Shown here: piece by piece, positions 44,966-64,000 of the stretch
Layout of the letters: each line of letters begins with the position of its first letter
Position numbering within the stretch: position 1 is the stretch's first letter
Assembly (NCBI GenBank): GCA_964618895.1
Contig: CAZUDO010000056.1
Location: 104,744 to 168,743 of the forward strand
Direction of reading: 5' to 3'
DNA from: an uncultured Candidatus Binatia bacterium
GTDB lineage: Bacteria; Desulfobacterota; Binatia; DP-6
DNA: 64,000 nucleotides
Notes under the pieces: model-generated
Seen by the model: only the letters and a program-made list of their open reading frames with translations
What the model was told of the DNA's origin: nothing
The model's database searches: none
Position numbers and translations under genes: made by a program

Positions 44966-44992
44966 CGCATGGCCGCCGCCCGCGCCCCGCCT

Positions 44993-45020: not shown

Positions 45021-45029
45021 AGACGGAGT

Positions 45030-45752
45030 GTGCCGGTCGTCGCCGCCAGCCGACGGCCGCGCGAGGCGAGCGCCACGGCGCCACCCACGCGCGAGCTGAT
45101 CCTCGACACCGCCGAGCGGTTGTTCTCCGCCCGTGGCGTGGACGGGGTGGCGGTGCGCGACCTCGCCCGCGAGATGGGCATCACGGCGTCGAGCCTCTAC
45201 AACCATTTCCCCGGCAAGCAGGCGCTGTACGATGCCGTGCTCGAGCGCGGCCTCGGGCCGATCGTGAGCGTGGTGGCGGAAGCCTGGCACCCCGGGGTGG
45301 TGCGCCCGGAGCAGGTGCAGGCGACGCTCGACCGGCTGACCGAGCACCTGGCGCGTCATCCGCACCTGGCGCGCCTGCTGCAGCGGGCCCTGCTCGAAGA
45401 CGCGGGTGCCGTGCAGACGCTCCTCGACCGGTGGCTCAGCTCGCTCTATCGCGAGGGCATCGCCGTCGTGCGCCGGATGGCGCGCGACGCCGGCTGGGAG
45501 GAGGAGCAGGTGCCGCATCTGGGCATCGCCCTCTTCGGGATGATCTTCGCCTACTTCACCAACCCCGCCGCGCTCCGGCGGCTCACCGGCTGGCGCGACG
45601 AGCCCCTGTCGGCGCACGGCCTGCAGGTGCAGCAACGTTTCCTGGCCGAAGCAGTGCTGCGCCTGCTCGGTCCACGACCGCAGGGCGCGGCGGCCCGCGC
45701 CAAACCCCCCACGCCAACCGGCGCACGACGACGGAGGTCCCCCCATGGCTGA
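45030..45752 (+). CDS. TetR-family transcriptional regulator
   Basis: HTH RGVDGVAVRDLAREMGITASSLYNHFPGKQALY; paralogous to the TetR at 28280; 3' end overlaps the next gene. Confidence 0.85.
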   Translation: MPVVAASRRPREASATAPPTRELILDTAERLFSARGVDGVAVRDLAREMGITASSLYNHFPGKQALYDAVLERGLGPIVSVVAEAWHPGVVRPEQVQATLDRLTEHLARHPHLARLLQRALLEDAGAVQTLLDRWLSSLYREGIAVVRRMARDAGWEEEQVPHLGIALFGMIFAYFTNPAALRRLTGWRDEPLSAHGLQVQQRFLAEAVLRLLGPRPQGAAARAKPPTPTGARRRRSPHG

Positions 45753-49124: not shown

Positions 49125-49281
49125 GTTTGCCCGTCACCGCCCGGCTCGAGGGCCGGAAATCTGCGGGATGACGAAAGATTTCCATTGACTACGTGTGCGG
49201 CAGTCATGGTAACCATCCCGGGTGGCCCGGCGGGTTGTACCTGGCAGGTGCGACCTGCGGGCGATGGACAGGGAGATACCC

Positions 49282-52200
49282 ATGGGCGATCGGCGTCTTA
49301 CTGCCACGGGGCATCCTCGACGGGGGTGGGGAAGGTCCCTCGTGCATCTCGCGGTGCTCGTGGCCGTGGGGGTGTCTGTTCGGCCCGCGACCGGAACGCC
49401 CGCGCCGCAGATACTGAGCGACATCCACCCCACCGGCACCTCGACATCCACCCGGCTGGTCGGGGTCGGCAGCACGTACTTCTTCCAGGCCGACGACGGC
49501 GTCAACGCCCGCGAGCTCTGGAAAACGGATGGCACCGGCGCCGGCACGACCCTGGTCGCCGACATCTGGCCCGGGGGAGGGGCGCCGGGTTCGCAACCGG
49601 CGAACGTCGTCAACCTCGGCGGCACGGCGGTGTTCGCGGCCGACGATGGCACCAACGGCCGCGAGCTGTGGACCAGCAACGGGACCGCCGGCGGCACCGC
49701 CTTGCTGGTCGACATCCGCCCCGGCGCGAGCGGGTCGTCGCCCAACTTCCTGGTCACCATCGGCAGCCTGGTGTTCTTCTCGGCCGACGACGGTAGCAAC
49801 GGCCGCGAGCTGTGGACGAGCGACGGGACCGCCGGTGGCACTGCGTTGCTGGCCGACATCCGCCCGGGCGCGGCCGCGTCGTCGCCGTCGAACCTGGTTG
49901 CCGTCGGCACCCGACTCTTCTTCACCGCCGACGACGGCACCAACGGCGTCGAGCTGTGGACGAGCGACGGCACGGGGCTCGGCACGGTCCTGGTGAAGGA
50001 CATCGTCGCGGGCGCGAGCGGGTCGTCGCCGTCCAATCTGGTGGCGGTCGGCGGGCAGCTCTACTTCGCGGCCTCCGACTCTACCAACGGCAACGAGCTC
50101 TGGACCAGCGACGGCACGACGGTCGGCACCGTGCTGGTGAAGAACATTCGCGCCGGGTCCTCCAGCTCGGCGCCGTCGAGCCTGGTCGACTTCGGTGGCA
50201 CGCTCGTCTTCTCTGCCGACGACGGCGTGGTCGGGCGCGAATTGTGGAAGAGCAACGGGACGGCGGCTGGGACCGTGCTCGTGAAGGACATCTTCACCGG
50301 CGCGTCCGCGTCCTCGCCGGCGAACCCGACGGCGATCGGCACGACGCTGTTCTTCTCCGCCAGCACGGGCAGCGGCACCGAGCTGTGGACGAGCGACGGC
50401 ACGGCGGGCGGGACGGTGCTGGTGAAGGACATCGCCCCGGGCAGTCCCAGCTCGTCCCCGGCGCAGCTCGCCGCGGTCGGCTCCATCCTCTACTTCCGCG
50501 CCACCGACGGTACCAACGGCGCCGAGCTGTGGCAGAGCGACGGCACGGCCGCCGGAACGGTCATGGTCGCGAACATCGCCCCCGGGGCGGCCTCGTCGAC
50601 GCCCACCAACCTCTCCGTCGGGGCCGGCACGCTGTTCTTCGCTGCCGACGACGGCGTACGGGCCAACGAGCCGTGGGTGCTGCTCGCGTCGTGCGGTAAT
50701 GGTGCGCTCAACCCCGGCGAGGCCTGCGACGACGGCAACGCCGTCGACACGGACGCCTGCAGCAACGACTGTACGCTCACCGGCTGCGGCAACGGCGTGG
50801 TCGCGGGTGCGGAGGAGTGCGACGACGGCAACCAGGCGGCGGGCGATTGCTGCGCCCCGACGTGCACGTTCGAGAGCAGCGGCAGTGCCTGCGCCTCCGA
50901 CCTCGACGCCTGCACGGACGACGAGTGCGACGGCGCCGGCGCGTGCACGCATCCGCCGGCCGCGGCCGGTACGCCGTGCGGGGATCCGGGCGTCTCGCCG
51001 TGTGACGCGGCCGACAGCTGCGACGGCGCCGGGACGTGCGACCAGAACCTGGTGGCGGCGGGCACCCCGTGCCCCGACGACGGTCTGGCCTGCCGCCTGG
51101 ATCAGTGCGACGGCGCCGGCGCCTGCGACCATCCGCTGGCCGGTGCGGGGACCGGGTGCCGCCCGGTCGCGGGGGCGTGCGACGTTGCCGAGAGTTGCGA
51201 CGGTCTGGACGAGAACTGTCCGGCGGACGGTTTCGCGGCCGACACGGTGGTCTGCCGTCCCGCGGCCGGGCCGTGCGACGTGGACGAGCTGTGCACGGGG
51301 GCGAGCGCTGCGTGCCCCGCCGACGTGAAGAGCACCGCCCTCTGTCGCCCGAGTGCGGGCGACTGCGACGTCGACGAGTCCTGCGACGGCGTGAGCGACG
51401 CGTGTCCCGCGGACGGGTTCCAGTCGGGCACCGTCGTGTGCCGGCCGGCGGTCGGCCCGTGCGATGCCGCCGATACGTGTACCGGGACGAGCGCGTCGTG
51501 CCCCGCCGATGGCAAGAGCACGGCGGTCTGCCGTCCCGCCGCCGGCCCCTGCGATCTGATCGAGAGCTGCGACGGCGTGAGCGACGCCTGCCCGACCGAC
51601 GCGAAGAGCACCGGCATGTGCCGTCCCGTGGCGGGCGCGTGCGATGTGGCGGAGACCTGTGACGGCGGCAGCGACGACTGTCCGGTGGACACGTTCGAGG
51701 CCGCGGGTACGGAGTGTCGTCCAGCCCTCGGCATCTGCGATCTGCCCGAGTTCTGCTCCGGCACCGAGGCCCCGTGTCCCACCGACGTGACCGTGGCCGA
51801 TGGTACCCCGTGCGACGATGCCAGTGTCTGCACCCAGAGCGACGCCTGCCTGGCCGGCGCGTGCGTGGGCACGTCCCTCGATTGCGACGACGGGAACCCG
51901 TGCACGCAGGATACGTGCGACCAGGGGAACGGCTGCGAGAACGAGACCGCCCCCGCCACCGGCTGCCGGGGTGCGCTCACGTCGAAGCTGATTTTCAAAC
52001 GCAACCCGATCGACCACACCAAGGACCTGCTCAAATGGGTATGGGCCAAGGGCCAGGCCACGACCCTCGCGGAGCTGGGGACGCCGATCACCACCACCGA
52101 CTACGACCTGTGCGTCTACGACGGCACCAATCAGGTGCTCGCCCGCGTACACGTGCCGGGGGGGTCGAGCGCGTGGGCGGCGTTGGGGAACGCCGGCTTC

Positions 52201-52455
52201 CGCTACAAGGACGTGACGACCGCCAGCGACGGCGCCCGCAACCTGGTGGTGAAGAGCGGGCTCACCAACAAGGCCAAAGTGGCGTTCACGGGCAAGGGCA
52301 CGAATCTGCCCGATCCGCCCGCGGGCGCGCTCACCCTGCCGATCACGACACAGGTCACGAACGGGACCGTGTGCTTCGAGGGCACGTACGCCCCGGCGCA
52401 CGTGATCCTGAACGACGCCACCCGGTTCTCGGCCAAGGTCGTCCCGGCGCCGTAG
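49282..52455 (+). CDS. Large secreted ELWxxDG-repeat (beta-propeller) protein with a C-terminal array of Myxococcales cysteine-rich repeats and a distal beta-rich domain
   Basis: Signal peptide; eight 48-aa repeats of the form ELWTSDGTAGGTxLVxDIxPGxxxSSPxxLxxVGxxLFFxAxDGxNG; then CGNGxxxPGExCDDGN and DxCDGxGxCxH repeats (the pattern described for Myxococcales Cys-rich repeats); start at ATG 49282 with a GGGAGA RBS (alternative 49264). Confidence 0.8.
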   Translation: MGDRRLTATGHPRRGWGRSLVHLAVLVAVGVSVRPATGTPAPQILSDIHPTGTSTSTRLVGVGSTYFFQADDGVNARELWKTDGTGAGTTLVADIWPGGGAPGSQPANVVNLGGTAVFAADDGTNGRELWTSNGTAGGTALLVDIRPGASGSSPNFLVTIGSLVFFSADDGSNGRELWTSDGTAGGTALLADIRPGAAASSPSNLVAVGTRLFFTADDGTNGVELWTSDGTGLGTVLVKDIVAGASGSSPSNLVAVGGQLYFAASDSTNGNELWTSDGTTVGTVLVKNIRAGSSSSAPSSLVDFGGTLVFSADDGVVGRELWKSNGTAAGTVLVKDIFTGASASSPANPTAIGTTLFFSASTGSGTELWTSDGTAGGTVLVKDIAPGSPSSSPAQLAAVGSILYFRATDGTNGAELWQSDGTAAGTVMVANIAPGAASSTPTNLSVGAGTLFFAADDGVRANEPWVLLASCGNGALNPGEACDDGNAVDTDACSNDCTLTGCGNGVVAGAEECDDGNQAAGDCCAPTCTFESSGSACASDLDACTDDECDGAGACTHPPAAAGTPCGDPGVSPCDAADSCDGAGTCDQNLVAAGTPCPDDGLACRLDQCDGAGACDHPLAGAGTGCRPVAGACDVAESCDGLDENCPADGFAADTVVCRPAAGPCDVDELCTGASAACPADVKSTALCRPSAGDCDVDESCDGVSDACPADGFQSGTVVCRPAVGPCDAADTCTGTSASCPADGKSTAVCRPAAGPCDLIESCDGVSDACPTDAKSTGMCRPVAGACDVAETCDGGSDDCPVDTFEAAGTECRPALGICDLPEFCSGTEAPCPTDVTVADGTPCDDASVCTQSDACLAGACVGTSLDCDDGNPCTQDTCDQGNGCENETAPATGCRGALTSKLIFKRNPIDHTKDLLKWVWAKGQATTLAELGTPITTTDYDLCVYDGTNQVLARVHVPGGSSAWAALGNAGFRYKDVTTASDGARNLVVKSGLTNKAKVAFTGKGTNLPDPPAGALTLPITTQVTNGTVCFEGTYAPAHVILNDATRFSAKVVPAP
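49513..50680. repeat. Intragenic array of about eight diverged 144-bp (48-aa) ELWxxDG repeats
   Basis: The periodicity is visible in the translation (ELWKTDGT..., ELWTSNGT..., ELWTSDGT... x6); the DNA copies are diverged (protein-level repeats). Confidence 0.7.
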
Positions 52456-52515
52456 CGTGTTGTTCGTATGACGGGGCACGGTCGGGCGCGCGCCCAGGGC
52501 GGGCTCCAGGGGGGG

Positions 52516-55161
52516 ATGGCCATGGGTGCAGTACGCGTCCTCGGTGTCGCGGTGGTGCTGGCCGCCGGGTTCGTGGCGCGGCCTGTCCGCGCGGCCGTGC
52601 TCGCCGAGTCGATCAGCGTCTCGGGCGACAGCATCGCCCGCGGCTACGACGCCAACACCAGCGCGTGCAACTACGGCGACAACGTCTCCCGCAACTGGGC
52701 CACCGGCGACACCCACGGCGGCAGCTTCTGCGCGGCGGGCGGCGAGGGCACCTTCAGCCACGCCGAGCGCCTCGAATGCGCCAAGGGCGGCAACGTCACC
52801 ATCTTCAACGACGCGGCCAGCGGCGCCGACATGCTGAGCGACTTCTACAACCAGGCGGTCAACATCAAGCTGAACCTCTCGTCGTCACTGGCGCCGCGCT
52901 ACGTGCCGGTGTTCATGGGCCACAACGACATCTGCACCAACACCGAGACCAGAACCGGCAACGCCTGCGGCGGCGACGACGACCCGAACAACTACTGCCG
53001 CACCGCCCCGGCGGCCTTCGAGCGCGAGTTCCGCCGTGGCATGGACCAGCTGATCCAGATCCCAAGCGTCCGCATCGGCGTATCGGCGGTGGTGCGCGTC
53101 TCCGAGCTGTGCAACTTTACCGGCAAGAGCGGCTGTGGGATCACGCTCGGCCTGCCGTGCAGCTCGGTGTGGGGTCTGGTCGACATCTGCGCCTCGCTCA
53201 CCAAGGACTGCTCGAACCAGCGGCGCATCGACGCGTATCTGACGGCGCTGGCGTACAACCAGATCCTGGAGGTGGTGACGGCCGAGTATGCTGCCATCTC
53301 CACGGGCGGGATGTCGCTCACCGGCGCGGTCAAGGCGCCCGACGTGGCCATCCGCTACAGCGAAGGCGCGTTCTTCTTCAAGTTCGCGAGCGCCGACGTG
53401 TCGTGTTGCGACTGCTTCCATCCCTCCGACCTGGGGCAATCGAAGATGGCGCAGTTCGGCTGGGACGGTCTGCAGTGCAGCGGCACCACGCCCTGCTGCG
53501 GGACCAGCGGCGATCCGCTCACGGACGCGATGTGCTCGCTGGTCGACACGGCGACGTTCTACCCGTCGGGCTTCTGGCCCGGCGGCATGCCGTGCGGCAA
53601 CGGCATTCTGGATCCCATGGAGCAGTGCGACGACGGCAACGCCCTCGACGGCGACTGCTGCTCGTCGTCGTGTACCTTCGATCCGGGCGGCACCCCGTGC
53701 GCGAGCGACGGCAACGTGTGCACGGACGACGTGTGCAACCCGACCGGCGGCTGCACCCATCCCGCCAATGCCGCGCCGTGTGGCGACGGGTTCTTCTGCA
53801 CCGTCAACGACACGTGCAGCGGCGGATCGTGCGCCGGCACGGCGCGCGACTGCTCCAGCGCCGGCAATCAGTGCAACGTCGGCGTCTGCGACGAAGCGCA
53901 GGACCAGTGCGTCGCGCAGCCAGTGTCGAACGGGACCGGCTGCATCGACGGCGACGCGTGTACGCAGACCGACACCTGCCAGAACGGGACGTGTACGGGC
54001 GCGAACCCCGTGGTGTGTACGGCCCAGGACCAGTGCCACGACGCCGGCACGTGCAATCCGCTGACAGGCGTGTGCTCGAACCCGGCCAAGGCGAACGGGA
54101 CCGCGTGTGCCGACGGCGACGCGTGTACGCAGACCGACACCTGCCAGGGCGGGACGTGTACGGGCGCGAACCCCGTGGTGTGTACGGCCCAGGACCAGTG
54201 TCACGACGCCGGCACGTGCAATCCCCTGACCGGTGGGTGCTCCAACCCGGCCAAGGCGAACGGGACGGCGTGCACGGACGGTGACGCGTGCACGCAGACC
54301 GACACCTGCCAGGCCGGGACCTGTACGGGCACGAACCCCGTCGTGTGCACCGCCCAGAACCAGTGTCACGACGCCGGCACGTGCAATCCGGGGACGGGCG
54401 TGTGCTCCAATCCGGCCAAGCCGGACGGCAGTGCCTGTAGCGACGGCAACGCGTGCACGGCCGCCGACCAGTGTGTCGCCGGCGTGTGCCAGGGCGGGGC
54501 GCCGCCGTGCGGCGACGGGATCGTGCAGGCCAGCTGCGGCGAGCAGTGCGACGACGGCGCTGCCAACGGCACGAACCAGTGCTGTTCGGCCACCTGCCAA
54601 CGGGTCGACGGCGACGGCGACGGCCTCTGCAACCGCGACGACCCGTGCACCGGCCTGGCCGGGCTGATCAAGCAGCGCATCACCATCACGCGTCTCGATA
54701 CGCCGCCCGGCGACGACCGCTTGAGCATCAAGGGCGACGGCATCCTGCCGTTCCCCTTCGCGCCGGCGCTCAACCCGATCGCGAACGGCGCCCGCCTGCT
54801 GGTCGAGCGTACAGGGGGCACCCTCGTCGATGTGACCCTGCCGGGCCTGGCGTGGACCGGCACCGTCGGCTGGCGCGTCAACGCCGCTGGCAACACGTTC
54901 ACGTGGACCGACAAGACGACCACGCCGCCGGGCGGTATCACGCGCTTCAAGGTCAAGCAGGTGGCGGCCACGCCGGGGCTGGTGCAGGTACGGGCCAAGG
55001 GGCTCGGGTCGTACAGCGTCACCGTCGGCGACCTGCCGCTCCGATTCACGGCCGTGCTCGACCCGCCGACCGCCGAGACGGGGCAGTGCGGCGAGGCGAC
55101 GTTCCCGGGGCCCCTGCCCCCGAGCTGTGTGCTGGTGGCGGCGAAGCTGACCTGTAAGTAG
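52516..55161 (+). CDS. Secreted SGNH/GDSL-type hydrolase fused to Myxococcales cysteine-rich repeats and a C-terminal beta domain
   Basis: Signal peptide; block I GDSIARGYD (catalytic Ser); block III GHNDIC; block V DCFHPSDLG (Asp/His); then CGNGILDPMEQCDDGN plus three tandem CTQTDTCQxGTCTGANPVVCTAQDQCHDAGTCNP repeats. Confidence 0.8.
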   Translation: MAMGAVRVLGVAVVLAAGFVARPVRAAVLAESISVSGDSIARGYDANTSACNYGDNVSRNWATGDTHGGSFCAAGGEGTFSHAERLECAKGGNVTIFNDAASGADMLSDFYNQAVNIKLNLSSSLAPRYVPVFMGHNDICTNTETRTGNACGGDDDPNNYCRTAPAAFEREFRRGMDQLIQIPSVRIGVSAVVRVSELCNFTGKSGCGITLGLPCSSVWGLVDICASLTKDCSNQRRIDAYLTALAYNQILEVVTAEYAAISTGGMSLTGAVKAPDVAIRYSEGAFFFKFASADVSCCDCFHPSDLGQSKMAQFGWDGLQCSGTTPCCGTSGDPLTDAMCSLVDTATFYPSGFWPGGMPCGNGILDPMEQCDDGNALDGDCCSSSCTFDPGGTPCASDGNVCTDDVCNPTGGCTHPANAAPCGDGFFCTVNDTCSGGSCAGTARDCSSAGNQCNVGVCDEAQDQCVAQPVSNGTGCIDGDACTQTDTCQNGTCTGANPVVCTAQDQCHDAGTCNPLTGVCSNPAKANGTACADGDACTQTDTCQGGTCTGANPVVCTAQDQCHDAGTCNPLTGGCSNPAKANGTACTDGDACTQTDTCQAGTCTGTNPVVCTAQNQCHDAGTCNPGTGVCSNPAKPDGSACSDGNACTAADQCVAGVCQGGAPPCGDGIVQASCGEQCDDGAANGTNQCCSATCQRVDGDGDGLCNRDDPCTGLAGLIKQRITITRLDTPPGDDRLSIKGDGILPFPFAPALNPIANGARLLVERTGGTLVDVTLPGLAWTGTVGWRVNAAGNTFTWTDKTTTPPGGITRFKVKQVAATPGLVQVRAKGLGSYSVTVGDLPLRFTAVLDPPTAETGQCGEATFPGPLPPSCVLVAAKLTCK
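53947..54441. repeat. Three near-identical tandem 165-bp (55-aa) coding repeats
   Basis: gacggcgacgcgtgtacgcagaccgacacctgccag...ggcgaacgggac(c/g)gcgtg(t/c)(gcc/acg) recurs at 53947, 54112 and 54277 with more than 90% identity (DGDACTQTDTCQxGTCTGANPVVCTAQDQCHDAGTCNPLTGxCSNPAKANGTAC). Confidence 0.85.
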
Positions 55162-55163: not shown

Positions 55164-55811
55164 CTACGAAACGGCCTGGCGCGCGCCGGTGGCGACGAAG
55201 CTGCGTGCCACCTGCGCCCGCAGGCGGCGCACCAGCTCATCGCGTTCCGCTCGCATACCGCCTGCGACCCAGTCCGCCAGCAGCACCTGGTCCATCACGC
55301 TGAACATGCGCGCCAGGTACTCGGGGTCCTCGTCGACGAACTCGCCGGCAGCGATGCCGCGCCGGAAGATGCCCGCCTGCAGCGCATGGATCTCCTGCCA
55401 GAGGCGGATCTGCGCGTCCGTGCCCGCCGTCGGTCCGAGCGCCCACGACGACCCCGAGCGCAGGTGCAGGCGGAGGAAGCCCTGGTGGGCCAGGAAGTAG
55501 TCGATGTAGGTCTCGAGCAGGGCGTCGAGCACCTCGCGCGCCGTGCCGGGGCGCGCCGTCACCGCGTGCACCAGACCGAGCAGCTCCTGCCCGCGCTCCT
55601 CCAGGATGGCTCCGAAGAGCTCCGTCTTGCCCGCGAAGATGCCGTAGATGGTTCCCATCGACAGGCCGGCAAGTGCGGAGATATCCTGGACTTTTGCCGT
55701 CTCGAAGCCGTGCTCCGCGAACACCCGCTCGGCGGCGTCCAGGATGTGGCTGCGGTACACGCTCTCGCGGGCGCGCCGGGCCTCGTCGCGCGGCGTCTTC
55801 CGTCGCTGCAC
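55164..55811 (-). CDS. TetR-family transcriptional regulator (divergent from the catabolic operon)
   Basis: HTH FETAKVQDISALAGLSMGTIYGIFAGKTELF; 215 aa. Confidence 0.85.
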   Translation of the reverse strand: MQRRKTPRDEARRARESVYRSHILDAAERVFAEHGFETAKVQDISALAGLSMGTIYGIFAGKTELFGAILEERGQELLGLVHAVTARPGTAREVLDALLETYIDYFLAHQGFLRLHLRSGSSWALGPTAGTDAQIRLWQEIHALQAGIFRRGIAAGEFVDEDPEYLARMFSVMDQVLLADWVAGGMRAERDELVRRLRAQVARSFVATGARQAVS

Positions 55812-55904
55812 GCGTGAAAACTACCATTCGAAAAACGGCTTGACAAGTCGAATTTACGAATGGTAATTCGCTGACCCGAATCCGAGTCGAGAAGGGAGCC
55901 CTCC
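55812..55904. promoter_or_regulatory. Divergent promoter/operator region between the TetR gene and the LLM monooxygenase operon
   Basis: cttgacaagtcgaatttacgaatggtaattcg contains a -35 TTGACA, a plausible -10 TGGTAAT, and the inverted repeats cgaatt-N10-aattcg and accattcg...cgaatggt; GAGAAGGGAG RBS before the ATG at 55905. Confidence 0.35.
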
Positions 55905-57029
55905 ATGGAGTTCGGCATTTTCTCGCAGATGCACTGCCCGCCCTGGGACGACGAACATTCCCGGTACCTGCGCGAGCTCGAGGTGTCGCTGGCGGTCGAG
56001 GCGGCGGGCTTCAAGTACGACTGGTCGCCGGAACACCACTTCCTGCAGCACTACTCGCATCAGCCGGCGCCGGAGGTGTTCCTCTCCTGGGTGGCGGCAC
56101 GCACCAAGCGCATCCACGTCGGTACCGCGATCACCAACATCACGGCGGCCGTCAACCACCCCGCCCGCGTCGCCGAGCGCATCGCCACCATGGACCACCT
56201 GTCCGAGGGGCGGGTCGAGTTCGGCACCGGCCGCGGCTCGTCGTCGGCCGAATGGGGCGGCTTCGCCATCCCGAACGCTGCCGAGACCAAGCCCATGTGG
56301 CGGGAGTCGCTGGAGCAGATCCCGCGCATGTGGCGGGACGAGCCGTACGCGTTCGAAGGCAAGTACTTCCGCATGCCGGAGCGGAACGTGTTGCCGAAGC
56401 CGTACTCCAAACCCCATCCGCCGATGTGGGTCGCGTGCTCGAGCCCGAACACCTTCGCCGAGGCCGGCGAGCTGGGGCTCGGCTCACTGTGCTTCACGTT
56501 CGGCACGCCGTCCGAGATCGCCGAGCACGTCCGCAACTACAAAGAGGGCATCAAGCGCTGCAAGACGCCGGTGGGTGGGTTCATCAACGACAACATCGCC
56601 GTCACCACCAACATGTTCTGCCTGCCCGATGGCGACAAGGCGCGCCACCTCTATGCCGGGGCCAAGGTGGAGAAGTTCACCGAGTACTTCTTCAGTTGGC
56701 TCGATTCGATCCCGCGTCCGAAGGGCATGCCGAAGGACGGCCCCATCACGGGCCTGCCGCAGACCACAGCCGAGGAGCTGAAGGCCGGGCTGGCCGGCGG
56801 TGGTCGCCAGATCGGGGCGCCCGAGGAGATCATCGAGGTCATCAAGATGTACGAGGCGATCGGCGTCGACCAGCTCATCTACGCACCCTTGACGCTGACG
56901 CTCGACCAGAAGTACGTCCTGGACTCGATCGAGACCTTCGGGAAGCACGTGTTGCCGCACTTCGACAAGGACCCCGTCCACTCGACGACGCGGCAGCGGC
57001 TGGCGGCGCTGAAGGCGCGGGCGGCCTGA
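55905..57029 (+). CDS. LLM-class (luciferase-like) flavin-dependent monooxygenase/oxidoreductase
   Basis: MEFGIFSQMHCPP...EHHFLQHYS...AITNITAAVNHPARVAERIATMDHLSEGRVEFGTGRG, the TIM-barrel LLM signature; 374 aa. Confidence 0.9.
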   Translation: MEFGIFSQMHCPPWDDEHSRYLRELEVSLAVEAAGFKYDWSPEHHFLQHYSHQPAPEVFLSWVAARTKRIHVGTAITNITAAVNHPARVAERIATMDHLSEGRVEFGTGRGSSSAEWGGFAIPNAAETKPMWRESLEQIPRMWRDEPYAFEGKYFRMPERNVLPKPYSKPHPPMWVACSSPNTFAEAGELGLGSLCFTFGTPSEIAEHVRNYKEGIKRCKTPVGGFINDNIAVTTNMFCLPDGDKARHLYAGAKVEKFTEYFFSWLDSIPRPKGMPKDGPITGLPQTTAEELKAGLAGGGRQIGAPEEIIEVIKMYEAIGVDQLIYAPLTLTLDQKYVLDSIETFGKHVLPHFDKDPVHSTTRQRLAALKARAA

Positions 57030-57047
57030 GCGGCGGACACGAAGCAG

Positions 57048-58505
57048 ATGGGCGTGCCGGTCATCGACAGGATCCTCGTCGGCGGAGAATGGGTTCCCGC
57101 CGGCGCCGGGACCTATCCGGTGATCGACCCGGCCACCGAGGAGCCGGCCGGACACGCGCCGCACGCCTCGGTCGCCCAGGTCAGCGCTGCTGCCCGCGCG
57201 GCGCGCGACGCCTTCGAGCGCGGGCCGTGGCGCACGATGCCCGCGGCCGAGCGCGCCGGCTGTCTGCGCGACGCGACCGAGCGCTTCAAACGCCACATGC
57301 ACGAGCTGGTCGACCTCACCATCGCGGAGACCGGGGCGGTGCGGGCGGTGGCGGAGAGCCAGCAGGTGGGGGCGGTGGCGCTCCGACTCGCCAAGGCGGC
57401 CGACCTGGCGGGCGAGGCGACCGACGAGGCGTTGTCGCCCCGCGAGCTGCCCGGCGGGCGCGGGCTCGCTACCGGCATCGTCGTCCGCGAGCCCATCGGC
57501 GTAGTGGCCTGCGTCACGCCCGCCAACTTCCCCATGACCAACTGCGCCGGCAAGCTCGGTCCGGCGCTGGCGTGCGGCAATACGGTGGTGGTGAAGCCGG
57601 CGCCCGTCGACCCACTCGGCGTGGCCGAGCTCTGCCGCCTGGTCGCGCCCGCGTTCCCGCCCGGCGTGGTCAACTTCGTGTGCGGGCCCGGCCCCGACAT
57701 CGGCGAGGCGCTCACGCTGTCGCCCGACGTGGACATGATCTCCTTCACCGGCAGCTCGGGCGTGGGCGCGCGCATCCAGGAACAGGCCGGGCCGCGCATG
57801 AAGCGCACCCTGATGGAGCTGGGCGGCAAGTCGGCCAGCATCGTGTTCGCCGACGCGGATCCCGCCCGGGCGCTGCAGGGCGCGATGCAGGTGTGGACCT
57901 TTCACTCGGGGCAGATCTGCATCGCCGGCACGCGGCTCCTGATCGAAGCGTCGATCTACGATGCCTTCACGGCCCGCATGGTCGAGGCGGCCGCGAAGCT
58001 CACGATCGGCGACCCGCGCGCGCCGGGGGTGATCGTCGGCCCGCTGGTCTCGGCGGCGCAGCGCGAGCGTGTCGAGCGCTTCATCGCGCGCGGCAGGGCC
58101 GAGGGCGCCACGGTCGCCTGCGGCGGGCGCCGCCCGCCGCACCTGCCGCGCGGCTACTACATGGAGCCGACGCTCTTCACCCACGCGCAGAACGACATGG
58201 AGGTCGCGCGCGAGGAGATCTTCGGTCCCGTCATCACCGCCATACCCTTCCGCGATGAGGCCGAGGCGATCGCGCTCGCCAACGACTCCGACTATGGCCT
58301 CTACGGCTACGTATGGACCGGCGACACGGCGCGCGGCGTGCGGGTAGCGCGCGCGCTCCGCACGGGGACGGTGCAGATCAACGGCAGCCCGCTCAACCCC
58401 GATGCCCCCTTCGGTGGCTACAAGCGCTCCGGCGTCGGCCGCGACGGCGGCCGCTGGGCGCTCGGGACGTACAGCGAGCTCAAATACATCGGGTGGACGG
58501 CATGA
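57048..58505 (+). CDS. NAD(P)-dependent aldehyde dehydrogenase
   Basis: Catalytic Cys region FHSGQICIAGTRLL, the glutamate motif MELGGKSA, and PFGGYKRSGVGRD; 485 aa. Confidence 0.9.
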   Translation: MGVPVIDRILVGGEWVPAGAGTYPVIDPATEEPAGHAPHASVAQVSAAARAARDAFERGPWRTMPAAERAGCLRDATERFKRHMHELVDLTIAETGAVRAVAESQQVGAVALRLAKAADLAGEATDEALSPRELPGGRGLATGIVVREPIGVVACVTPANFPMTNCAGKLGPALACGNTVVVKPAPVDPLGVAELCRLVAPAFPPGVVNFVCGPGPDIGEALTLSPDVDMISFTGSSGVGARIQEQAGPRMKRTLMELGGKSASIVFADADPARALQGAMQVWTFHSGQICIAGTRLLIEASIYDAFTARMVEAAAKLTIGDPRAPGVIVGPLVSAAQRERVERFIARGRAEGATVACGGRRPPHLPRGYYMEPTLFTHAQNDMEVAREEIFGPVITAIPFRDEAEAIALANDSDYGLYGYVWTGDTARGVRVARALRTGTVQINGSPLNPDAPFGGYKRSGVGRDGGRWALGTYSELKYIGWTA

Positions 58506-58548
58506 GCGGCCGCGGCACGCCCATCGGATGGATCGGACGGACGGCGTA

Positions 58549-60255
58549 ATGGCATTCGACACCATCATCAAGGGCGGCACGGTCGTGGACGGCTCGGGGC
58601 TTCCGCGGCGGCTCGCCGACGTGGGCATCCGCGGCGGCATGATCACGGACGTGGGCCGGCTCTCGGGCGGCACGCGTACGATCGACGCCGACGGGCTGGT
58701 GGTGATGCCCGGCATCGTCGACGCGCACACCCACTACGACCCGCAGCTTACCTTCGACCCGTTCGGCAGCTCGTCGTGCTTCCACGGCGTCACCTCGGTG
58801 GTGGGCGGCAACTGCGGCTATTCGATCGCGCCCTGCGCTCCGAAAGACCGCGACTGGATCACGGCCTTCTTCGCCAAGGTCGAGGGCATGACGCCGAGCG
58901 TGCTGAAGGCGGGCCTGCCGTGGGACTGGGAGACCTTCCCCCAGCTCCTCGACGTGCTCGACACCCGCCTCGGCATCAACGCCGCCGCCTACGTCGGCCA
59001 CTCCGCCATCCGGCGCTGGGTGATGGGGGACGCGGCCTCGGAGCGCGCGGCCACGCCCGCCGAGATCACGCAGATGGCCGCCCTGGTGCGCGAGGCGATG
59101 CGCCACGGCGCCGCCGGCTTCTCGTCGTCGCAGTCGCCGACGCACGTCGACCAGTTCAACCGGCCGGTGCCGTCGCGCAAGGCCACCTTCGAGGAGATCA
59201 AGGCGCTCGCCACGGCGGCGGGCGAGGGCGGGGCGGGCTCGATTGCGTTCCTGGCGTCGACGGCGGTGCAGGGTTACGACGCCGGCGACCGCGAGCGGCT
59301 CGTCGAGCTGGCGCACGTCTCCGGGCTGCCGGTGGTCGTGCAGGGCATGGGCTACCGTCCCGGCGCCAAGGACAAGTGGGACGACCAGGTGCGCTTCCTC
59401 TCCGATGCGCGCAGCCAGGGGGCGGCTATCTACTCGATGCTGCGGACGCAGCCGTTCATGCGGCCGTTCAACTGGCGGCGCGGCACGTCGCTGTTCGACG
59501 GCGTGTTCCACTGGCGCGACCTGGCGGCTCTGCCCCCGGCGGAGCGCCTGGCGCGCTTCAAGAACTCCAACGGCCGGGAAGAGCTGCGCCGGGGGCTCGA
59601 CCATCCCAACACCGACAGCGCCAAGGGCTCGACCCTGCCGCCGCCGGCCATGACGGCGCTGTTCGTCGACAAGTCGAAAACGGATCCGGGCGCGGTCGGA
59701 AAGCACCTCGCTCAGCTCGCCAAGGAGCGCGGCGTCCATCCCGCCGACGTGTTCTGCGAGATCACCGCCGGCGACGACCTCGATACGCAGTGGGTCTACA
59801 ACAGCGAGAGCCCGGCCTGGATCGAGGCCAATCTCGAGGCCCAGAAGAACCTGCACATGATCGTCGGCACCGGCGACGGCGGCGCACACGCCGATCGCGA
59901 CGACGGCGCCGAGTGGTCGACGTACTTCCTCCGCACCTGGTGCCTCGACCGCCAGGCCTACACGCTGGAGGACGCCGTCCGCCGCATCACCCAGCTGCCG
60001 GCCGTCATCTGTGGCATCGAGCGCCGCGGCATGATCGCGCGCGGCTACCACGCGGACCTGATGCTCTTCGATCCCAAGCGTCTGGCGCTCGGCAAGAAAC
60101 AGCTGGTGCACGACATGCCGGGCGGCGAGGAGCGCTGGCAGGTGCTGCCGGAGGGGGTCGAGCGCGTGCTCGTGAACGGCGAGGTAATCGTCGAGCGGGG
60201 CAAGCTCACCGGCGCGCGACCCGGGCGCGTCCTCCGCATCGGAAACGCCACCTGA
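58549..60255 (+). CDS. N-acyl-D-amino-acid deacylase (D-aminoacylase) family amidohydrolase
   Basis: MAFDTIIKGGTVVDGSG...GIVDAHTHYD metal-binding HxH; FHGVTSVVGGNCG; C-terminal GYHADLMLFDP; 568 aa. Confidence 0.8.
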   Translation: MAFDTIIKGGTVVDGSGLPRRLADVGIRGGMITDVGRLSGGTRTIDADGLVVMPGIVDAHTHYDPQLTFDPFGSSSCFHGVTSVVGGNCGYSIAPCAPKDRDWITAFFAKVEGMTPSVLKAGLPWDWETFPQLLDVLDTRLGINAAAYVGHSAIRRWVMGDAASERAATPAEITQMAALVREAMRHGAAGFSSSQSPTHVDQFNRPVPSRKATFEEIKALATAAGEGGAGSIAFLASTAVQGYDAGDRERLVELAHVSGLPVVVQGMGYRPGAKDKWDDQVRFLSDARSQGAAIYSMLRTQPFMRPFNWRRGTSLFDGVFHWRDLAALPPAERLARFKNSNGREELRRGLDHPNTDSAKGSTLPPPAMTALFVDKSKTDPGAVGKHLAQLAKERGVHPADVFCEITAGDDLDTQWVYNSESPAWIEANLEAQKNLHMIVGTGDGGAHADRDDGAEWSTYFLRTWCLDRQAYTLEDAVRRITQLPAVICGIERRGMIARGYHADLMLFDPKRLALGKKQLVHDMPGGEERWQVLPEGVERVLVNGEVIVERGKLTGARPGRVLRIGNAT

Positions 60256-61334
60256 TGCGGGCCGCCGTCTACCACGGGGGTGGGAAGCCGGTCTCCATCG
60301 AGGAGATCGGCGTGCGCGACCCCGGCCCGGGCGAGGTGCGGGTCGCCATCAAGGCGGCGGGTCTCTGCCACTCCGACCTGAGCGTCATCGACGGCACCAT
60401 CCCGTATCCGGTGCCGGTGGTGCTCGGGCACGAGGGGGCCGGCATGGTGGACGCGATCGGGAGCGGCGTCACCGGCGTGAAGGAAGGCGACGCCGTCGTC
60501 CTCTCGACGCTGGCCCACTGCGGCCGCTGTCGCGCCTGCGAGGTGGGGCGGCCGACCGAATGCCGGAACGCCCCCAATCCCAAGGAGACGCTGCCCTTCA
60601 CCGTGGGCGGGAAGCCGGCGTACCAGTTCGCCAACACATCGGCCTTCACCGAGCGCACGGTGGTGCGCGAGCAGAGCGCCATCCCGATCGACCCGCGCGT
60701 TCCCTTCGACTGCGCTGCGCTCATCGGCTGCGGCATCATGACCGGCTTCGGCGCGGTCGTGAACCGGGCGAAGGTGGAGACGGGGGCCACCATGGCCGTC
60801 TTCGGCCTCGGCGGCATCGGCCTCAGCTGCGTGCAGGGCGGGGTGCTGGTGGGCGCGGCGCAGATCATCGCCGTCGATGTGGTGAGTGAGAAGCTCGACC
60901 TGGCCCGCCGCCTGGGCGCCACGCACACGCTCGACGCCACGCGCGACGACCCGGTGGCGGCCATCCGGGACCTCACCCGCGGCGGCGCCGACTACACCTT
61001 CGAGGCGGTCGGCAGCCTGCCCGTCATCAAGCAGGCGCTCGACGCCCTCGGCCCGGGCGGCACGCTCACCATCGTCGGCGTGCCCAAGTTGGGCTCGAGC
61101 CTCGACGTGGTGGTCCACACGCTCTACCAGAACAAGGCGATCCTCGGCTGCCGCTACGGCGCCGCCCGGCCGCGGCGCGACTTTCCGCTGCTCGCCGACC
61201 TGTATCTCGGCGGCCGGCTCAAGATCGACGAGCTCATCACCCGGCACTACGCGCTCGACGACTTCGAACGGGCGCTGACCGACCTGCGCAGCGGGCACCT
61301 CGCCCGCGGCGTGTTCCGCTTCGACGCGGCCTAG
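60255..61334 (+). CDS. Zinc-dependent alcohol dehydrogenase (MDR family)
   Basis: GLCHSDL...GHEGAG catalytic-Zn motif; structural-Zn cysteines CGRCRACEVGRPTEC; Rossmann GLGGIGLS; ATGA overlap with the upstream gene. Confidence 0.9.
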   Translation: MRAAVYHGGGKPVSIEEIGVRDPGPGEVRVAIKAAGLCHSDLSVIDGTIPYPVPVVLGHEGAGMVDAIGSGVTGVKEGDAVVLSTLAHCGRCRACEVGRPTECRNAPNPKETLPFTVGGKPAYQFANTSAFTERTVVREQSAIPIDPRVPFDCAALIGCGIMTGFGAVVNRAKVETGATMAVFGLGGIGLSCVQGGVLVGAAQIIAVDVVSEKLDLARRLGATHTLDATRDDPVAAIRDLTRGGADYTFEAVGSLPVIKQALDALGPGGTLTIVGVPKLGSSLDVVVHTLYQNKAILGCRYGAARPRRDFPLLADLYLGGRLKIDELITRHYALDDFERALTDLRSGHLARGVFRFDAA

Positions 61335-61348
61335 ACGGAGGGAGTCCC

Positions 61349-62416
61349 ATGGGACGATTCGGCTATCACGTGATTGACGCCGACGGGCACGGCGGCGACC
61401 AGCCCAGCTGGCAGGACCGCTTGCCGGCGGAGTTCCAGCCGCACATGGCCACGCGTCGCGAGCGCATCAAGCAGCAGTTCGCGAACCTGCCCGGCGTCGG
61501 CATCAAGCAGACCAAGGGCACCGCCAAGCTGGACAGCCTCGAGCGCCCCGGCATGACGGACCCCAAGCCCCGGCTGGAAGACATGGACCTGGAAGGTATC
61601 GACCAGACCATCATGTTCCCCGGTGGCGCCGGCGAGGAGTGGGCCGGGCTCGATCGCGGCTTCGCGATCGCGCTCTGCCGAACGCTGAACGACGCGCGCG
61701 CCGAGTACACGCGCTACGCGCCGAAGCGTCTCATGTCGGTCGCCAAGCTTCCCATGATCGACCCCGCCGCCGCCGCCGCCGAGCTGCGCCGCGCCGTCAA
61801 GGAGCTCGGCATGGTCGGCATGGTGACCACCCAGCACGTGCGCGACAAGAACCTCGACGACCCGAGCTTCGACGTGGTCTGGCGCACGGCCGAGGACCTG
61901 GGCGTGGCGGTCTGTGTGCACGGCGGCGGCCAGGCGATCGACCAGGTGCCGATCGGCGTCGACCGCTGGACGACGCGCCTCGAGGTGCACGCCTTCACCC
62001 ATCCGGTCGGGCAGATGATGGCGGTGATGGCGTTCTCGGCGGGCGGCATCCTGCATCGCTTCCCGAAGCTCCGGGTCGCCTTCCTCGAGGCCACCACCGG
62101 CTGGCTGCCGTTCTGGCTGGAGCGCCTGGACGAGCACTGGGAGCTCACGCCCGAGCAGGCGCCGATCATCGACCGGAAGCCGAGCGAGTACATTTTGTCC
62201 GGCCGCTGCTTCATCGGCTGCGATCCCGACGAGAAGTACATGCCGCACGTCGTCGACGCGCTCGGCGAAGGGGTGGTGGTGTACGCCTCGGACTACTGCC
62301 ACTGGGACTGCCGCTTCCCGGACACGGTGAAGATCATCGCGGAGCGGACGGATCTGTCGCAGAGCGCCAAGCAGAAGCTCTTCGACGACAACCCGCGCCG
62401 GCTGTACGCGCTCTGA
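61349..62416 (+). CDS. Amidohydrolase-2 family (TIM-barrel metal-dependent hydrolase / decarboxylase-like)
   Basis: HVIDADGHGGD N-terminal metal motif; later VHGGG and DYCHWDC; 355 aa. Confidence 0.8.
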   Translation: MGRFGYHVIDADGHGGDQPSWQDRLPAEFQPHMATRRERIKQQFANLPGVGIKQTKGTAKLDSLERPGMTDPKPRLEDMDLEGIDQTIMFPGGAGEEWAGLDRGFAIALCRTLNDARAEYTRYAPKRLMSVAKLPMIDPAAAAAELRRAVKELGMVGMVTTQHVRDKNLDDPSFDVVWRTAEDLGVAVCVHGGGQAIDQVPIGVDRWTTRLEVHAFTHPVGQMMAVMAFSAGGILHRFPKLRVAFLEATTGWLPFWLERLDEHWELTPEQAPIIDRKPSEYILSGRCFIGCDPDEKYMPHVVDALGEGVVVYASDYCHWDCRFPDTVKIIAERTDLSQSAKQKLFDDNPRRLYAL

Positions 62417-62422
62417 GCCGTC

Positions 62423-63049
62423 GTGCCGGTTGACCTGCAGGGTTTTCTCGAGCCATCCCGCGCGGCGCTCCTCCTGATGGAATGTCAGGAGGGGATCATC
62501 GGTGCCGGCGGGCGCCTGGGGGCGCTCGCCGAGGCGGTCGCGCGGCACGGGACGGTCGCGCACATCGCGCGCGTGCTGGCGGCCGCGCGGCGCGCGCACG
62601 TCCCCGTCTTCTACTGTACGGTCGCGCGCCGGCCCGACGGCGGCGGCGCGGCGGTCAACTGTCTCCTGCTGGCGGCCACCAAACGCGGCACGCCGCTGCT
62701 GCCCGGCTCGCCGCAGCAGGCGGTGGTGGCGGCGCTGGCGCCCGCCGACGGCGACTACGTCGTCACGCGCTTCCACGGGTTGAGCCCGTTCCACGGCACC
62801 GAGCTGGACCAGTTGCTGCGCAACCTGGGCGTGCGCACGGTGGTGGCCGCCGGGGTGTCGGTCAACATCGGCATGCTCGGCCTCACGCTCGAGGCGGTGA
62901 ACGCTGGCTACCAGGTGGTGCTCCCGCGCGAGGCCACCACCGGTGTGCCGGACGCGTACGTCGACGCCGTCTTCGAGCACACGTTGAAACTGCTGGCGAC
63001 CGTCACTTCGGTGGACGAGGTGGTCGCGGCGTGGAGCGGGCATGGCTGA
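62423..63049 (+). CDS. Isochorismatase-family cysteine hydrolase
   Basis: ALLLMECQEGII, VVTRFHGLSPFHGTELDQLLRNLGVRTVVAAGVSVNIGMLGL with the catalytic-Cys-type region; 208 aa. Confidence 0.75.
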   Translation: MPVDLQGFLEPSRAALLLMECQEGIIGAGGRLGALAEAVARHGTVAHIARVLAAARRAHVPVFYCTVARRPDGGGAAVNCLLLAATKRGTPLLPGSPQQAVVAALAPADGDYVVTRFHGLSPFHGTELDQLLRNLGVRTVVAAGVSVNIGMLGLTLEAVNAGYQVVLPREATTGVPDAYVDAVFEHTLKLLATVTSVDEVVAAWSGHG

Positions 63050-63806
63050 GCGGTTCCCTGGCAAGGTGGTGTTCGTGACCGGCGCCGGCTCCGGCATCGG
63101 GCGCGCCACCGCGGCGCTGTTCGCGGCCGAAGGCGCGAAGGTGTTCGCCGTCGACGTGAACGGCGACGGTCTCATGCAGACCATCGACCAGCTCCGCCCG
63201 CTCGGGCGGACTATCGAGGGCGGCGTGTGCGACGTGGCCGACACGGCCTCGGTCGAAGCGGCGATCGGCAACACCGTGACCACGTTCGGCGGGCTCGACG
63301 TGCTGGTGAACGCCGCCGGCATCGGCGGCTTCGCCCGCTTCGAGGAGCTGGACGAGGCCACGTTCGAGCGCACGCTGCAGGTGAACCTGGGCGGCGTCTT
63401 CCGCACCACCAAGGCGGCGCTGCCGCACCTCCTGGCGCGCTGTCCGGGCGCCAACGTCGTGAACGTCGCCTCGACGGCGGGCATGCGCGGCACGGCGTAC
63501 GCGGCGCACTACAGCGCCTCCAAGGGCGGCGTGGCCCTGCTGTCGCGCTCGCTGGCGCTCGAGTTCGCGAGCCGCGACCTGCGCATCAACTGCGTCTGCC
63601 CGGGCGGCGTCAAGACGCCGTTCGGGCGTTTCTTCCTGCGCCGCGAGGACTTCGAGGCCCACCTGATCGACTACTCGGCGCCGCCGAAGATCGGGCACTT
63701 CGCGGATCCCGAAGACATTGCGGGCGTGATCGCGTTCCTCGCCTCGGACGCGGCCCGCATGGTGAACGGCGTCACGCTCCTGGCCGATGGCGGCACGCTC
63801 GCGTAG
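63042..63806 (+). CDS. SDR-family oxidoreductase
   Basis: TGAGSGIGRA, NAAGI, and the catalytic YSASK tetrad. Confidence 0.9.
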   Translation: MAERFPGKVVFVTGAGSGIGRATAALFAAEGAKVFAVDVNGDGLMQTIDQLRPLGRTIEGGVCDVADTASVEAAIGNTVTTFGGLDVLVNAAGIGGFARFEELDEATFERTLQVNLGGVFRTTKAALPHLLARCPGANVVNVASTAGMRGTAYAAHYSASKGGVALLSRSLALEFASRDLRINCVCPGGVKTPFGRFFLRREDFEAHLIDYSAPPKIGHFADPEDIAGVIAFLASDAARMVNGVTLLADGGTLA

Positions 63807-63814
63807 AAGGCCGC

Positions 63815-64000
63815 GGATGCTACTCGACGTGCTTGCCCGCCACGCCGCCGAATGCGGCGACCGGCCGTTCCTGGCGCATGTCGGGCGGCGCGTGACCTAC
63901 GCCGAGTTCGACCGGCTTTCGAACCGCGCCGCGCACGCGCTCCGTGCCCTGGGCGTTACGAAGGGCGACCGGGTGACGCTCGGTCTCGGCAACTCGGTCG
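63815..64000 (+). CDS. AMP-dependent synthetase/ligase (acyl-CoA synthetase), N-terminal fragment running out of the window
   Basis: MLLDVLARHAAECGDRPFLAHVGRRVTYAEFDRLSNRAAHALRALGVTKGDRV, the typical ANL-superfamily N-terminus. Confidence 0.6.

Follow-up and report, generated by a model that had tools for sequence, protein, structure and literature searches.

Introduction

Amidohydrolase-related dinuclear oxygenases (AROs) are O2-dependent C-H hydroxylases of the PF04909 fold that work with Fe2 or Mn/Fe cofactors, and PtmU3, AibH2, SfbO, DitZ and BarH-like proteins belong to them (PMC10811679, PMC13154177). They are defined by an N-terminal D-x-H motif on the first beta strand, which supplies two M1 ligands, a C-terminal D-x-P-H-x-[D/E] motif and a mid-barrel His and a bridging Glu as further M1 ligands; this ligand set is missing from hydrolases and decarboxylases that share the fold, and the Pro of the C-terminal motif is not a metal ligand in the published description (PMC13154177). 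In the aib cluster of Rhodococcus wratislaviensis, which serves 2-aminoisobutyrate catabolism, an ARO, an alcohol dehydrogenase and an aldehyde dehydrogenase turn a C-H bond into a carboxylate (PMC7782822). Here we compare such systems with an operon found in a 64,000-nucleotide stretch of DNA (the window) from an uncultured Candidatus Binatia bacterium (contig CAZUDO010000056.1), in which the gene for a TetR-family regulator lies divergent from genes for a luciferase-like (group C) flavin-dependent monooxygenase (LLM), an NAD(P)-dependent aldehyde dehydrogenase (ALDH), an Amidohydro_3 metallohydrolase (AH3), a Zn-dependent alcohol dehydrogenase (Zn-ADH), a PF04909 "amidohydrolase-2" (AH2), an isochorismatase-fold protein, a short-chain dehydrogenase/reductase (SDR) and an acyl-CoA ligase.

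Binatia, abundant soil bacteria that are uncultured, have a metabolism known through annotation alone. We put at roughly 55% the probability that the locus is an inducible, mainly oxidative catabolic operon of Candidatus Binatia, which would combine repression by TetR with hydroxylation by an ARO, oxidation by Zn-ADH and ALDH, a flavin-dependent step by the LLM, deacylation by AH3 and activation with CoA. The reading turns on the metal ligands of AH2, on the catalytic residues of the isochorismatase-fold protein and on the company that AH3 keeps in other genomes.

Results and Discussion

An eight-gene operon conserved across Binatia

An ORF listing and a Pfam scan recovered all the genes named in a preliminary description of this DNA, in the order and at the places given there. 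The TetR gene (55164–55811, minus strand) encodes 215 residues from a GTG start, with a TetR_N match over residues 23–69 (1.9e-13) and a weak TetR_C_24 match, and is separated from the plus-strand genes by a putative divergent promoter/operator region of 93 bp (55812–55904), a length that agrees with the spacer described earlier. The plus-strand run begins with the LLM (55905–57029, 374 aa; Bac_luciferase at 1.3e-49 over the full length) and continues with the ALDH (57048–58505, 485 aa; Aldedh at 3.6e-151), AH3 (58549–60255 with an alternative start at 58528, 568 aa; Amidohydro_3 at 2e-32), the Zn-ADH (60255–61334, 359 aa; ADH_N and ADH_zinc_N), AH2 (61349–62416, 355 aa; PF04909 at 2.1e-31), the isochorismatase-fold protein (62423–63049, 208 aa from a GTG start; Isochorismatase at 2e-29), a classical SDR (63042–63806, 254 aa; adh_short at 1.6e-55) and the acyl-CoA ligase (63817–64000), which is cut by the end of the window and matches AMP-binding at 3.3e-12 over the 61 residues that lie inside it. 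The preliminary description had counted nine plus-strand genes; there are eight, and the figure of nine is reached only with TetR included. The intergenic distances along the run are 18, 43, −1, 14, 6, −8 and 10 bp, terminator-like hairpins are not enriched (2 observed against 3.2 expected), and the GC content is about 70%.

That the ligase gene runs past the window was anticipated, and a public contig (L001) that is identical to the window over 9641 bp and reaches 2 kb further supplied the remainder. The ligase is complete on this contig (9458–10957, 499 aa) and is followed by a convergent gene of 119 aa with no Pfam match, so the ligase is taken as the last gene of the operon, which ends ~1.3 kb beyond the window. 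In kind, this eight-gene, repressor-controlled catabolic operon is ordinary.

Eighty genome loci around AH3 homologues were fetched, and all window proteins were mapped onto them. The order TetR <-> LLM-ALDH-AH3-ZnADH-AH2-isochorismatase-like-SDR-ligase recurs in about 16 species-level Binatia genomes at 57–87% protein identity, and the flanks of the operon are mostly unrelated between these loci. The orthologues are clustered rather than scattered, in keeping with the single operon proposed at the outset, and with the whole arrangement conserved at about 16 Binatia loci, the genes and their arrangement are more than chance. For AH3, AH2 and the LLM alike, the nearest homologues belong to metagenome-assembled genomes (MAGs) of Candidatus Binatia, older records being labelled "Deltaproteobacteria". 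AH3, the ARO-like gene and the LLM are the three most conserved genes of the operon and are 70–90% identical across hundreds of metagenome contigs.

The operon also varies. The SDR is dispensable in some genomes, for L011, L016 and the P0010 contig have all the rest of the operon without it, and a short form, TetR <-> AH3-ZnADH-SDR, occurs in L002 (1275–5529) and L007 (1044–6619) without LLM, ALDH, ARO or isochorismatase-like gene. The short form of L007 is followed by a MerB-like protein (alkylmercury lyase domain) and an ORF of 128 aa. In two loci from long-read MFD MAGs (L018 and L021), the LLM, AH2, Zn-ADH and AH3 genes appear split into two or three tblastn pieces, which reflects either pseudogenisation of these copies or frameshift errors at homopolymers in nanopore assemblies.

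AH2 carries the ligand pattern of AROs

The best solved relatives of AH2 are 8sm7, 8sm9, PtmU3 and AibH2, with LigW and ACMSD close behind. Its N-terminal motif (D12-G13-H14) lies within VIDADGH, just past the predicted first strand (residues 9–10), in a DxDxH form that is common to canonical ARO relatives, and its C-terminal loop reads D315-Y-C317-H318-W-D320. In phmmer alignments, the SDYCHWD of AH2 falls on SDYPHWD in 8sm7 and 8sm9, SDYPHLE in PtmU3 and TDYPHFD in AibH2, H191 (VCVHGGG) falls on the mid-barrel His of 8sm7, PtmU3 and AibH2, and E247 (FLEATTGW) falls on the bridging Glu of the AROs; LigW has a His at this position and ends in DYPYQ. D12, H14, H191, E247, D315, H318 and D320 are invariant in 31 AH2 orthologues. 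The amide hydrolase that the preliminary description saw in AH2 is not borne out, since the ligands are those of AROs and not those of PF04909 hydrolases or decarboxylases.

A HMMER scan of 1.84 billion cluster representatives returned AH2 relatives at 35–58% identity; the canonical C-terminal motif was taken as D-x-P-H-x-[D/E] at least 200 aa into the protein. A D-x-x-H-x-[DE] loop is present in 109 of the 118 full-length nearest representatives, and 108 of these 109 have the N-terminal motif as well. The third position of the loop is Pro in 82 of the 109 and W, C, S, A, F, I or L in the other 27 (about 25%), and the 150 nearest representatives (P0241–P0390) are ARO-like. AH2 would therefore seem to belong to the ARO superfamily, among relatives that have often lost the Pro, a residue that is not a ligand. 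The AlphaFold2 (AF2) model of AH2 has a mean predicted local distance difference test (pLDDT) score of 85.9, and its top Foldseek match is SfbO (8sm6, TM 0.78). No Rieske ferredoxin gene neighbours AH2, which fits the published trend for the diiron H-ARO class, most members of which lack such a neighbour. Taken together, the aligned residues suggest that AH2 is probably an ARO with a non-canonical D-x-C-H-x-D motif. When plasmids were searched with AH2, the matches were all distant ones from cyanobacteria, Streptomyces and Burkholderia, and their context was uninformative.

The isochorismatase-fold protein has lost its triad and AH3 keeps a deacylase fold

Aligned with biuret hydrolase, 3kl2, YecD and CSHase, the isochorismatase-fold protein shows E20, R116 and G150 (GVSVNIG) at the positions where the Asp, Lys and Cys of the cysteine-hydrolase triad (RutB, biuret hydrolase, CSHase, nicotinamidase) are expected, and the E/R/G pattern is conserved in 15 of 15 orthologues. 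Because the triad is replaced, and consistently so across the orthologues, the protein is, judged by these residues, not a cysteine amidase; with the nucleophile gone and Glu and Arg in place of Asp and Lys, the earlier label of isochorismatase-like hydrolase is not supported. E. coli YecD also has Gly at the Cys position, and its GISTNIG resembles GVSVNIG.

AH3 matches the D-aminoacylase 1m7j in the PDB at 1e-37, and at 1e-68 with a family profile. Its top Foldseek matches are the D-acylases 9gv8, 1m7j and 3gip and the de-N-acetylase PpOngB (TM 0.58–0.73), and all solved AH3 relatives are N-deacylases. Five residues (H60, H62, C89 within GNCG, D443 and H447) are invariant in 86 homologues of 32–100% identity. 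The ligands of D-aminoacylase are presumably His67/69, Cys96, His220, His250 and Asp366 in 1m7j numbering; H60 and H62 align to its H-x-H (His67/69), C89 to the bridging Cys96 and D443 to Asp366. The central 180 aa of AH3 (profile positions 198–374) are not alignable to 1m7j, even with a 30-sequence profile, and the sole conserved His of this central part is H199 (at least 90%). The description of AH3 as a D-aminoacylase-type amidohydrolase finds support in the fold and in the solved relatives. AH3 appears to be the only credible hydrolase of the operon and is most likely a deacylase, though not an orthodox D-aminoacylase.

AH3, ARO, LLM and Zn-ADH genes recur together

Beyond the Binatia operon, a tblastn-based count found, in 13 of 57 distant loci, an AH3 paralogue and a canonical ARO gene (DFPHxD) no more than about 0.4 kb apart (up to 1.4 kb in L081, with a Zn-ADH between). 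These AH3 paralogues, from Binataceae, Reyranella-like and other MAGs, are 34–39% identical. The AH3-ARO pair is followed by an LLM in L040, L050 and L068, the last with the order AH3-ARO-LLM-abhydrolase-LLM, and by a family III CoA-transferase in L073; L046 and L081 share the order AH3-ZnADH-ARO, with Zn-ADH at 44–45% identity. On the megaplasmid AP027312.1 of Sphingobium sp. TomMM7A (L082–L084), a 15-kb stretch carries homologues of AH3 (47%) and of Zn-ADH (49%, class-III-like) together with a canonical ARO (DADNH...DYPHPE). The island (about 972–998 kb and 1–9 kb of the plasmid) also holds a type I Baeyer-Villiger monooxygenase (BVMO), TauD, an alpha/beta hydrolase, enoyl-CoA hydratases, a CoA ligase, MFS transporters and a TonB receptor, and its AH3, Zn-ADH and ARO genes go unmentioned in the tomatine-catabolism paper.

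AH3, ARO, LLM and Zn-ADH form a recurring functional neighbourhood, and we argue that they therefore act on related intermediates. A bolder idea, which we offer tentatively and with the odds against it, is that AH2 represents an unrecognised ARO subclass in which Pro has given way to Cys, Tyr or His, and that with AH3 and the luciferase-like monooxygenase it makes up a recurrent module (in the operon studied here and, at family level, in L040, L050 and L068) for an undescribed pathway of oxidative deacylation or C-H functionalisation.

The remaining enzymes

The best solved relatives of the LLM are 7bip (5e-25), the Enhygromyxa LuxA 8cbb (4e-23) and PuwE. Its orthologues are 80–87% identical and carry the NCBI name "LLM class flavin-dependent oxidoreductase"; NCBIfam models of the F420 family score highest, yet far below their cut-off. 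LadA is an LLM of roughly 440 aa with insertions, and a LadA-type alkane hydroxylase was rejected for the 374-aa protein, LadA being absent from its PDB matches at E<=1e-5. No flavin reductase partner for the LLM is encoded in the operon or its immediate flanks; the reductase partners of group C flavin monooxygenases are often encoded elsewhere.

The catalytic motifs of the ALDH, Zn-ADH, SDR and ligase are all intact. The ALDH has ELGGK (257) and GQIC (288), with all NCBIfam equivalogs below cut-off. The Zn-ADH gene overlaps AH3 by 1 nt (translational coupling) and its product has CHSD, GHE, C-x2-C-x2-C-x7-C and GLGGIG; the closest NCBIfam models, again below cut-off, are the NDMA-dependent alcohol dehydrogenase and mycothiol formaldehyde dehydrogenase subfamilies. 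The SDR gene overlaps that of the isochorismatase-like protein by 8 nt, and the protein has NAAG and YSASK. In the ligase TSGTTGTPKG, FFTGD, GGENV and PKTPTQRV are present. Among the 10 proteins scanned, none reached an NCBIfam equivalog cut-off; the best model for TetR was the SACE_7040 family, at 60 bits against a cut-off of 250.

A conserved operator footprint in the divergent spacer

Within the spacer, the two arms of a 16-nt inverted repeat (55819–55834 and 55853–55868, 88% complementary) stand on either side of a TTGACA (55840–55845), and a short palindrome, CGAAT-GGTA-ATTCG, occupies 55857–55870. The candidate operator elements within 55812–55904 are CGAATGGTAATTCG and the TACCATTCG arms. 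When 15 orthologous spacers were aligned, the core TTGACAAnTC...CGAATnnTAnTTCG was invariant at all 15 loci; the invariant columns are TTGACAA.TC, CGAAT, TA.TTCG and an upstream TA.CA, and the rest of the spacer varies freely (mean column identity 50%). The same core also lies upstream of the short-variant operons of L002 and L007. The palindromic operator candidates proposed earlier have thus become an inverted-repeat core conserved at 15 loci. TetR orthologues of 55–68% identity occupy the same position in 15 loci, and the N-terminal helix-turn-helix, the divergent gene pair and the palindromic spacer with its putative operator together make the pattern of a TetR repressor. The invariant columns amount to a phylogenetic footprint in which a promoter and an operator overlap, and TetR would be expected to bind this operator.

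Proposed pathway and alternatives

In the oxidative pathway that we favour, TetR would occupy the inverted repeat, which is conserved and overlaps with the one promoter, and keep the eight genes off until the substrate or an intermediate binds it. AH2 would act as an ARO-type dinuclear (Fe2 or Mn/Fe) O2-dependent hydroxylase on an unactivated C-H bond, and Zn-ADH and ALDH would carry the alcohol through the aldehyde to the carboxylate, the same three-step logic as in AibH1H2, AibD1 and AibE. The luciferase-like enzyme would perform a second, flavin-dependent oxygenation with reduced flavin from a reductase encoded elsewhere. AH3 would contribute the single hydrolytic step, most likely an N-deacylation, and hand an alcohol-bearing product to the translationally coupled Zn-ADH, the SDR would serve as an accessory dehydrogenase, and the ligase would thioesterify the acid product for beta-oxidation-type metabolism. 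Because AH2 has ARO ligands and the isochorismatase-like protein has lost its triad, the chemistry would consist mainly of oxygenations and dehydrogenations, and no more than one step would be clearly hydrolytic.

Our best guess at the substrate is an N-acylated aliphatic or alicyclic compound. The preliminary description had held that the substrate cannot be named from sequence, with which the shortfall of every protein against the equivalog cut-offs agrees. Of the N-acyl or amide hydrolysis it foresaw, the part borne by AH3 survives on the deacylase fold, and the parts borne by AH2 and the isochorismatase-like protein do not; for the lactam it also suggested there is no specific support.

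Several points weigh against the oxidative pathway. We infer every catalytic assignment, the order of the steps and repression by TetR; the catalytic roles of all operon proteins come from sequence and models alone, and the order of steps is conjecture. AH2 departs from the published Pro-containing motif, having Cys in the place of Pro, and across the genome loci this third position is occupied by C, Y or H, with the two Asp and the His of the loop unchanged. Its fold is nearly as close to the ACMSD and LigW decarboxylases (1e-16) as to the AROs (1e-18), and because the fold search does not discriminate between the two, it is the identity of the ligands alone that carries the ARO call. The second-sphere residues (Gly at gamma1, probably Phe at gamma2 and an aromatic Trp at gamma4) fit neither published metal class cleanly. 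For AH3, equivalents of the beta-site His220 and His250 were not located in the profile alignment, and the AF2 model is weakest at the metal loops (residues 59–91 and 442–454). Lastly, there is no ferredoxin, flavin reductase or transporter gene within the operon.

Some of these points would suit a different AH2. As a non-redox, mononuclear PF04909 decarboxylase or hydratase of the LigW, ACMSD or LigJ type, it would leave the LLM as the only oxygenase, and LigW and ACMSD are indeed nearly as close to it as the AROs in sequence (7e-19 against 6e-20) as well as in fold, the strict D-x-P-H-x-[DE] is absent and the operon brings no redox partner. The ligands make this improbable: strand 1 has D-x-H and not H-x-H, a Glu stands where LigW has its His, a His and an Asp follow the strand-8 Asp where decarboxylases have Phe or Tyr, and the 150 nearest representatives are ARO-like. 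If AH2 is granted its place among the AROs, the same enzymes could still be arranged along a Baeyer-Villiger route for an alicyclic alcohol or ketone, with ring hydroxylation by the ARO, ketone formation by the SDR, the LLM as a type II BVMO, lactone opening by AH3, oxidation to a dicarboxylate by Zn-ADH and ALDH, and the ligase at the end. The set maps one-to-one onto the logic of the chn (cyclohexanol) enzymes, which form an established pathway, and the LLM family includes the diketocamphane monooxygenases (a weak match to 4uwm at 3e-6). The Sphingobium island pairs its AH3, Zn-ADH and ARO homologues with a type I BVMO, an alpha/beta hydrolase, enoyl-CoA hydratases and a CoA ligase, and in L068 an abhydrolase lies between the two LLM genes after AH3 and ARO. 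We nevertheless think this route unlikely, for the solved relatives of AH3 are all N-deacylases with no lactonase among them, the SDR that should make the ketone is absent from some otherwise complete operons, and the LLM is nearer to LuxA and a polyketide LLM than to known type II BVMOs.

The two remaining explanations fit the data worst. Stepwise hydrolysis of an N-acylated or lactam compound, as the preliminary description had it, would make amide hydrolases of AH3, AH2 and the isochorismatase-like protein and leave the dehydrogenases and the ligase to process the fragments. The Pfam family names and the D-aminoacylase fold of AH3 favour it, a kynurenine-formamidase-like "cyclase" is a semi-conserved neighbour, and TetR, LLM and isochorismatase-like protein superficially recall the Rut operon for pyrimidine ring opening; it is doubtful all the same, given the ARO-type ligands of AH2 and a triad without its Cys, Asp and Lys. 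Orthology with the Rut operon was rejected, RutB scoring 38.6 bits against a cut-off of 378 and RutR 27.4 against 368, with RutA outside the best 25 of 31 LLM matches. A genome survey of the Binatota reported many ladA homologues together with alcohol and aldehyde dehydrogenases and proposed an alkane role for the LLMs (PMC8262859). With LLM, ADH, ALDH and ligase all in the operon, a long-chain alkane or fatty-alcohol pathway built on a LadA-like LLM might be read from it; we regard this as very improbable, because the LLM is LuxA-like in its matches and of a length that does not suit LadA, and because AH3, the ARO and the isochorismatase-like protein would be left unexplained although AH3, ARO and LLM are the most conserved genes. 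The oxidative, ARO-based operon with a single deacylation is therefore the reading that we carry forward.

Genes upstream of the operon

The PF04199 "cyclase" gene (48204–49124, plus strand, 306 aa; Cyclase at 2.9e-21), kynurenine-formamidase-like and a possible associate of the operon, has orthologues of 75–80% identity lying 0.02–3.7 kb upstream of TetR in L004, L005, L010, L011, L018, L008 and the P0010 contig. In the window it is about 6 kb from TetR, with two large genes for secreted proteins between. No conserved transporter, reductase or ferredoxin was found in the flanks of the related loci, where only the PF04199 gene recurs. From this linkage, the cyclase may be functionally part of the operon.

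The two intervening genes, with which the TetR gene is convergent, are unrelated to catabolism. One (49222–52455, plus strand) encodes a Cys-rich, apparently secreted protein of 1077 aa with Disintegrin (3.9e-30) and DUF4215 matches, a bacterial disintegrin-domain protein being unusual; the other (52468–55161, plus strand) encodes a Cys-rich, apparently secreted protein of 897 aa with a GDSL lipase domain and a myxobacterial Cys-rich acidic repeat. Their position between cyclase and TetR looks insertion-like. Further upstream, a lipid/CoA-type cluster (41639–46863) comprises an MFS transporter, a GNAT-like protein, an enoyl-CoA hydratase, a second TetR and a FAS1-like (MaoC-type) dehydratase, and another enoyl-CoA hydratase is encoded at 39292–40101 on the minus strand.

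Significance

The operon is among the most conserved accessory clusters of Binatia, and annotation by family name would misread it as hydrolytic. Beyond the preliminary description, AH2 emerges as a candidate non-canonical ARO, the isochorismatase-like protein has lost its triad, and AH3, ARO, LLM and Zn-ADH are seen to associate recurrently. If AH2 is a dinuclear oxygenase, the predicted chemistry shifts to O2-dependent C-H oxidation, and the ARO field would gain a widespread clade missed by the published motif filter. With about 17,000 AROs identified by motif, the published census is probably too low for the superfamily; if the subclass reading is true, a census that requires Pro would undercount it by roughly a quarter in this neighbourhood. 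The type of system is a familiar one, and the pay-off is modest without the substrate. The AH3-ARO-LLM-Zn-ADH association could guide its discovery, and Sphingobium sp. TomMM7A, a cultured bacterium from tomato root, is a tractable organism for identifying what the AH3/ARO/ADH module acts on.

Comparison with known systems

No characterised pathway has this composition. The Rut operon shares with it a TetR-family regulator (RutR), an LLM (RutA) and an isochorismatase-fold protein (RutB) in one operon; it differs in that the isochorismatase-like protein here lacks the catalytic Cys of RutB and that there are no equivalents of RutC–G. The chnABCDE and camphor pathways contain the same classes of enzyme, namely hydroxylase, SDR, oxygen-inserting flavoenzyme, hydrolase, ADH, ALDH and CoA ligase, but a different protein family serves at each step and the likeness is one of analogy only. 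At the level of single proteins, AH3 shares with the D-aminoacylase subset (1m7j, 3gip and 9gv8, together with PpOngB, 9kb1) the fold, the N-terminal beta-sandwich, the H-x-H, the GNCG Cys and the strand-8 Asp-x3-His, whereas it is about 85 aa longer, only 20–26% identical and unalignable in its centre. AH2 has the PF04909 TIM barrel, the D-x-H, the mid-barrel His, the bridging Glu and the D-x-x-H-x-D loop of the AROs, aligned residue for residue; it departs from them in its gamma1/2/4 pattern and in the hallmark Pro, which is Cys here and Tyr or His in some orthologues, and is known from sequence alone. The aib cluster, unlike this operon, has a heterodimeric ARO, a Rieske ferredoxin, a reductase, a LysR regulator, a permease and pyridoxal phosphate enzymes, and it lacks an LLM, AH3, an isochorismatase-like protein and a CoA ligase. 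Its proteins are not orthologous to those of the operon; what the two share is the combination of an ARO hydroxylase, probable in the case of AH2, with an alcohol dehydrogenase and an aldehyde dehydrogenase.

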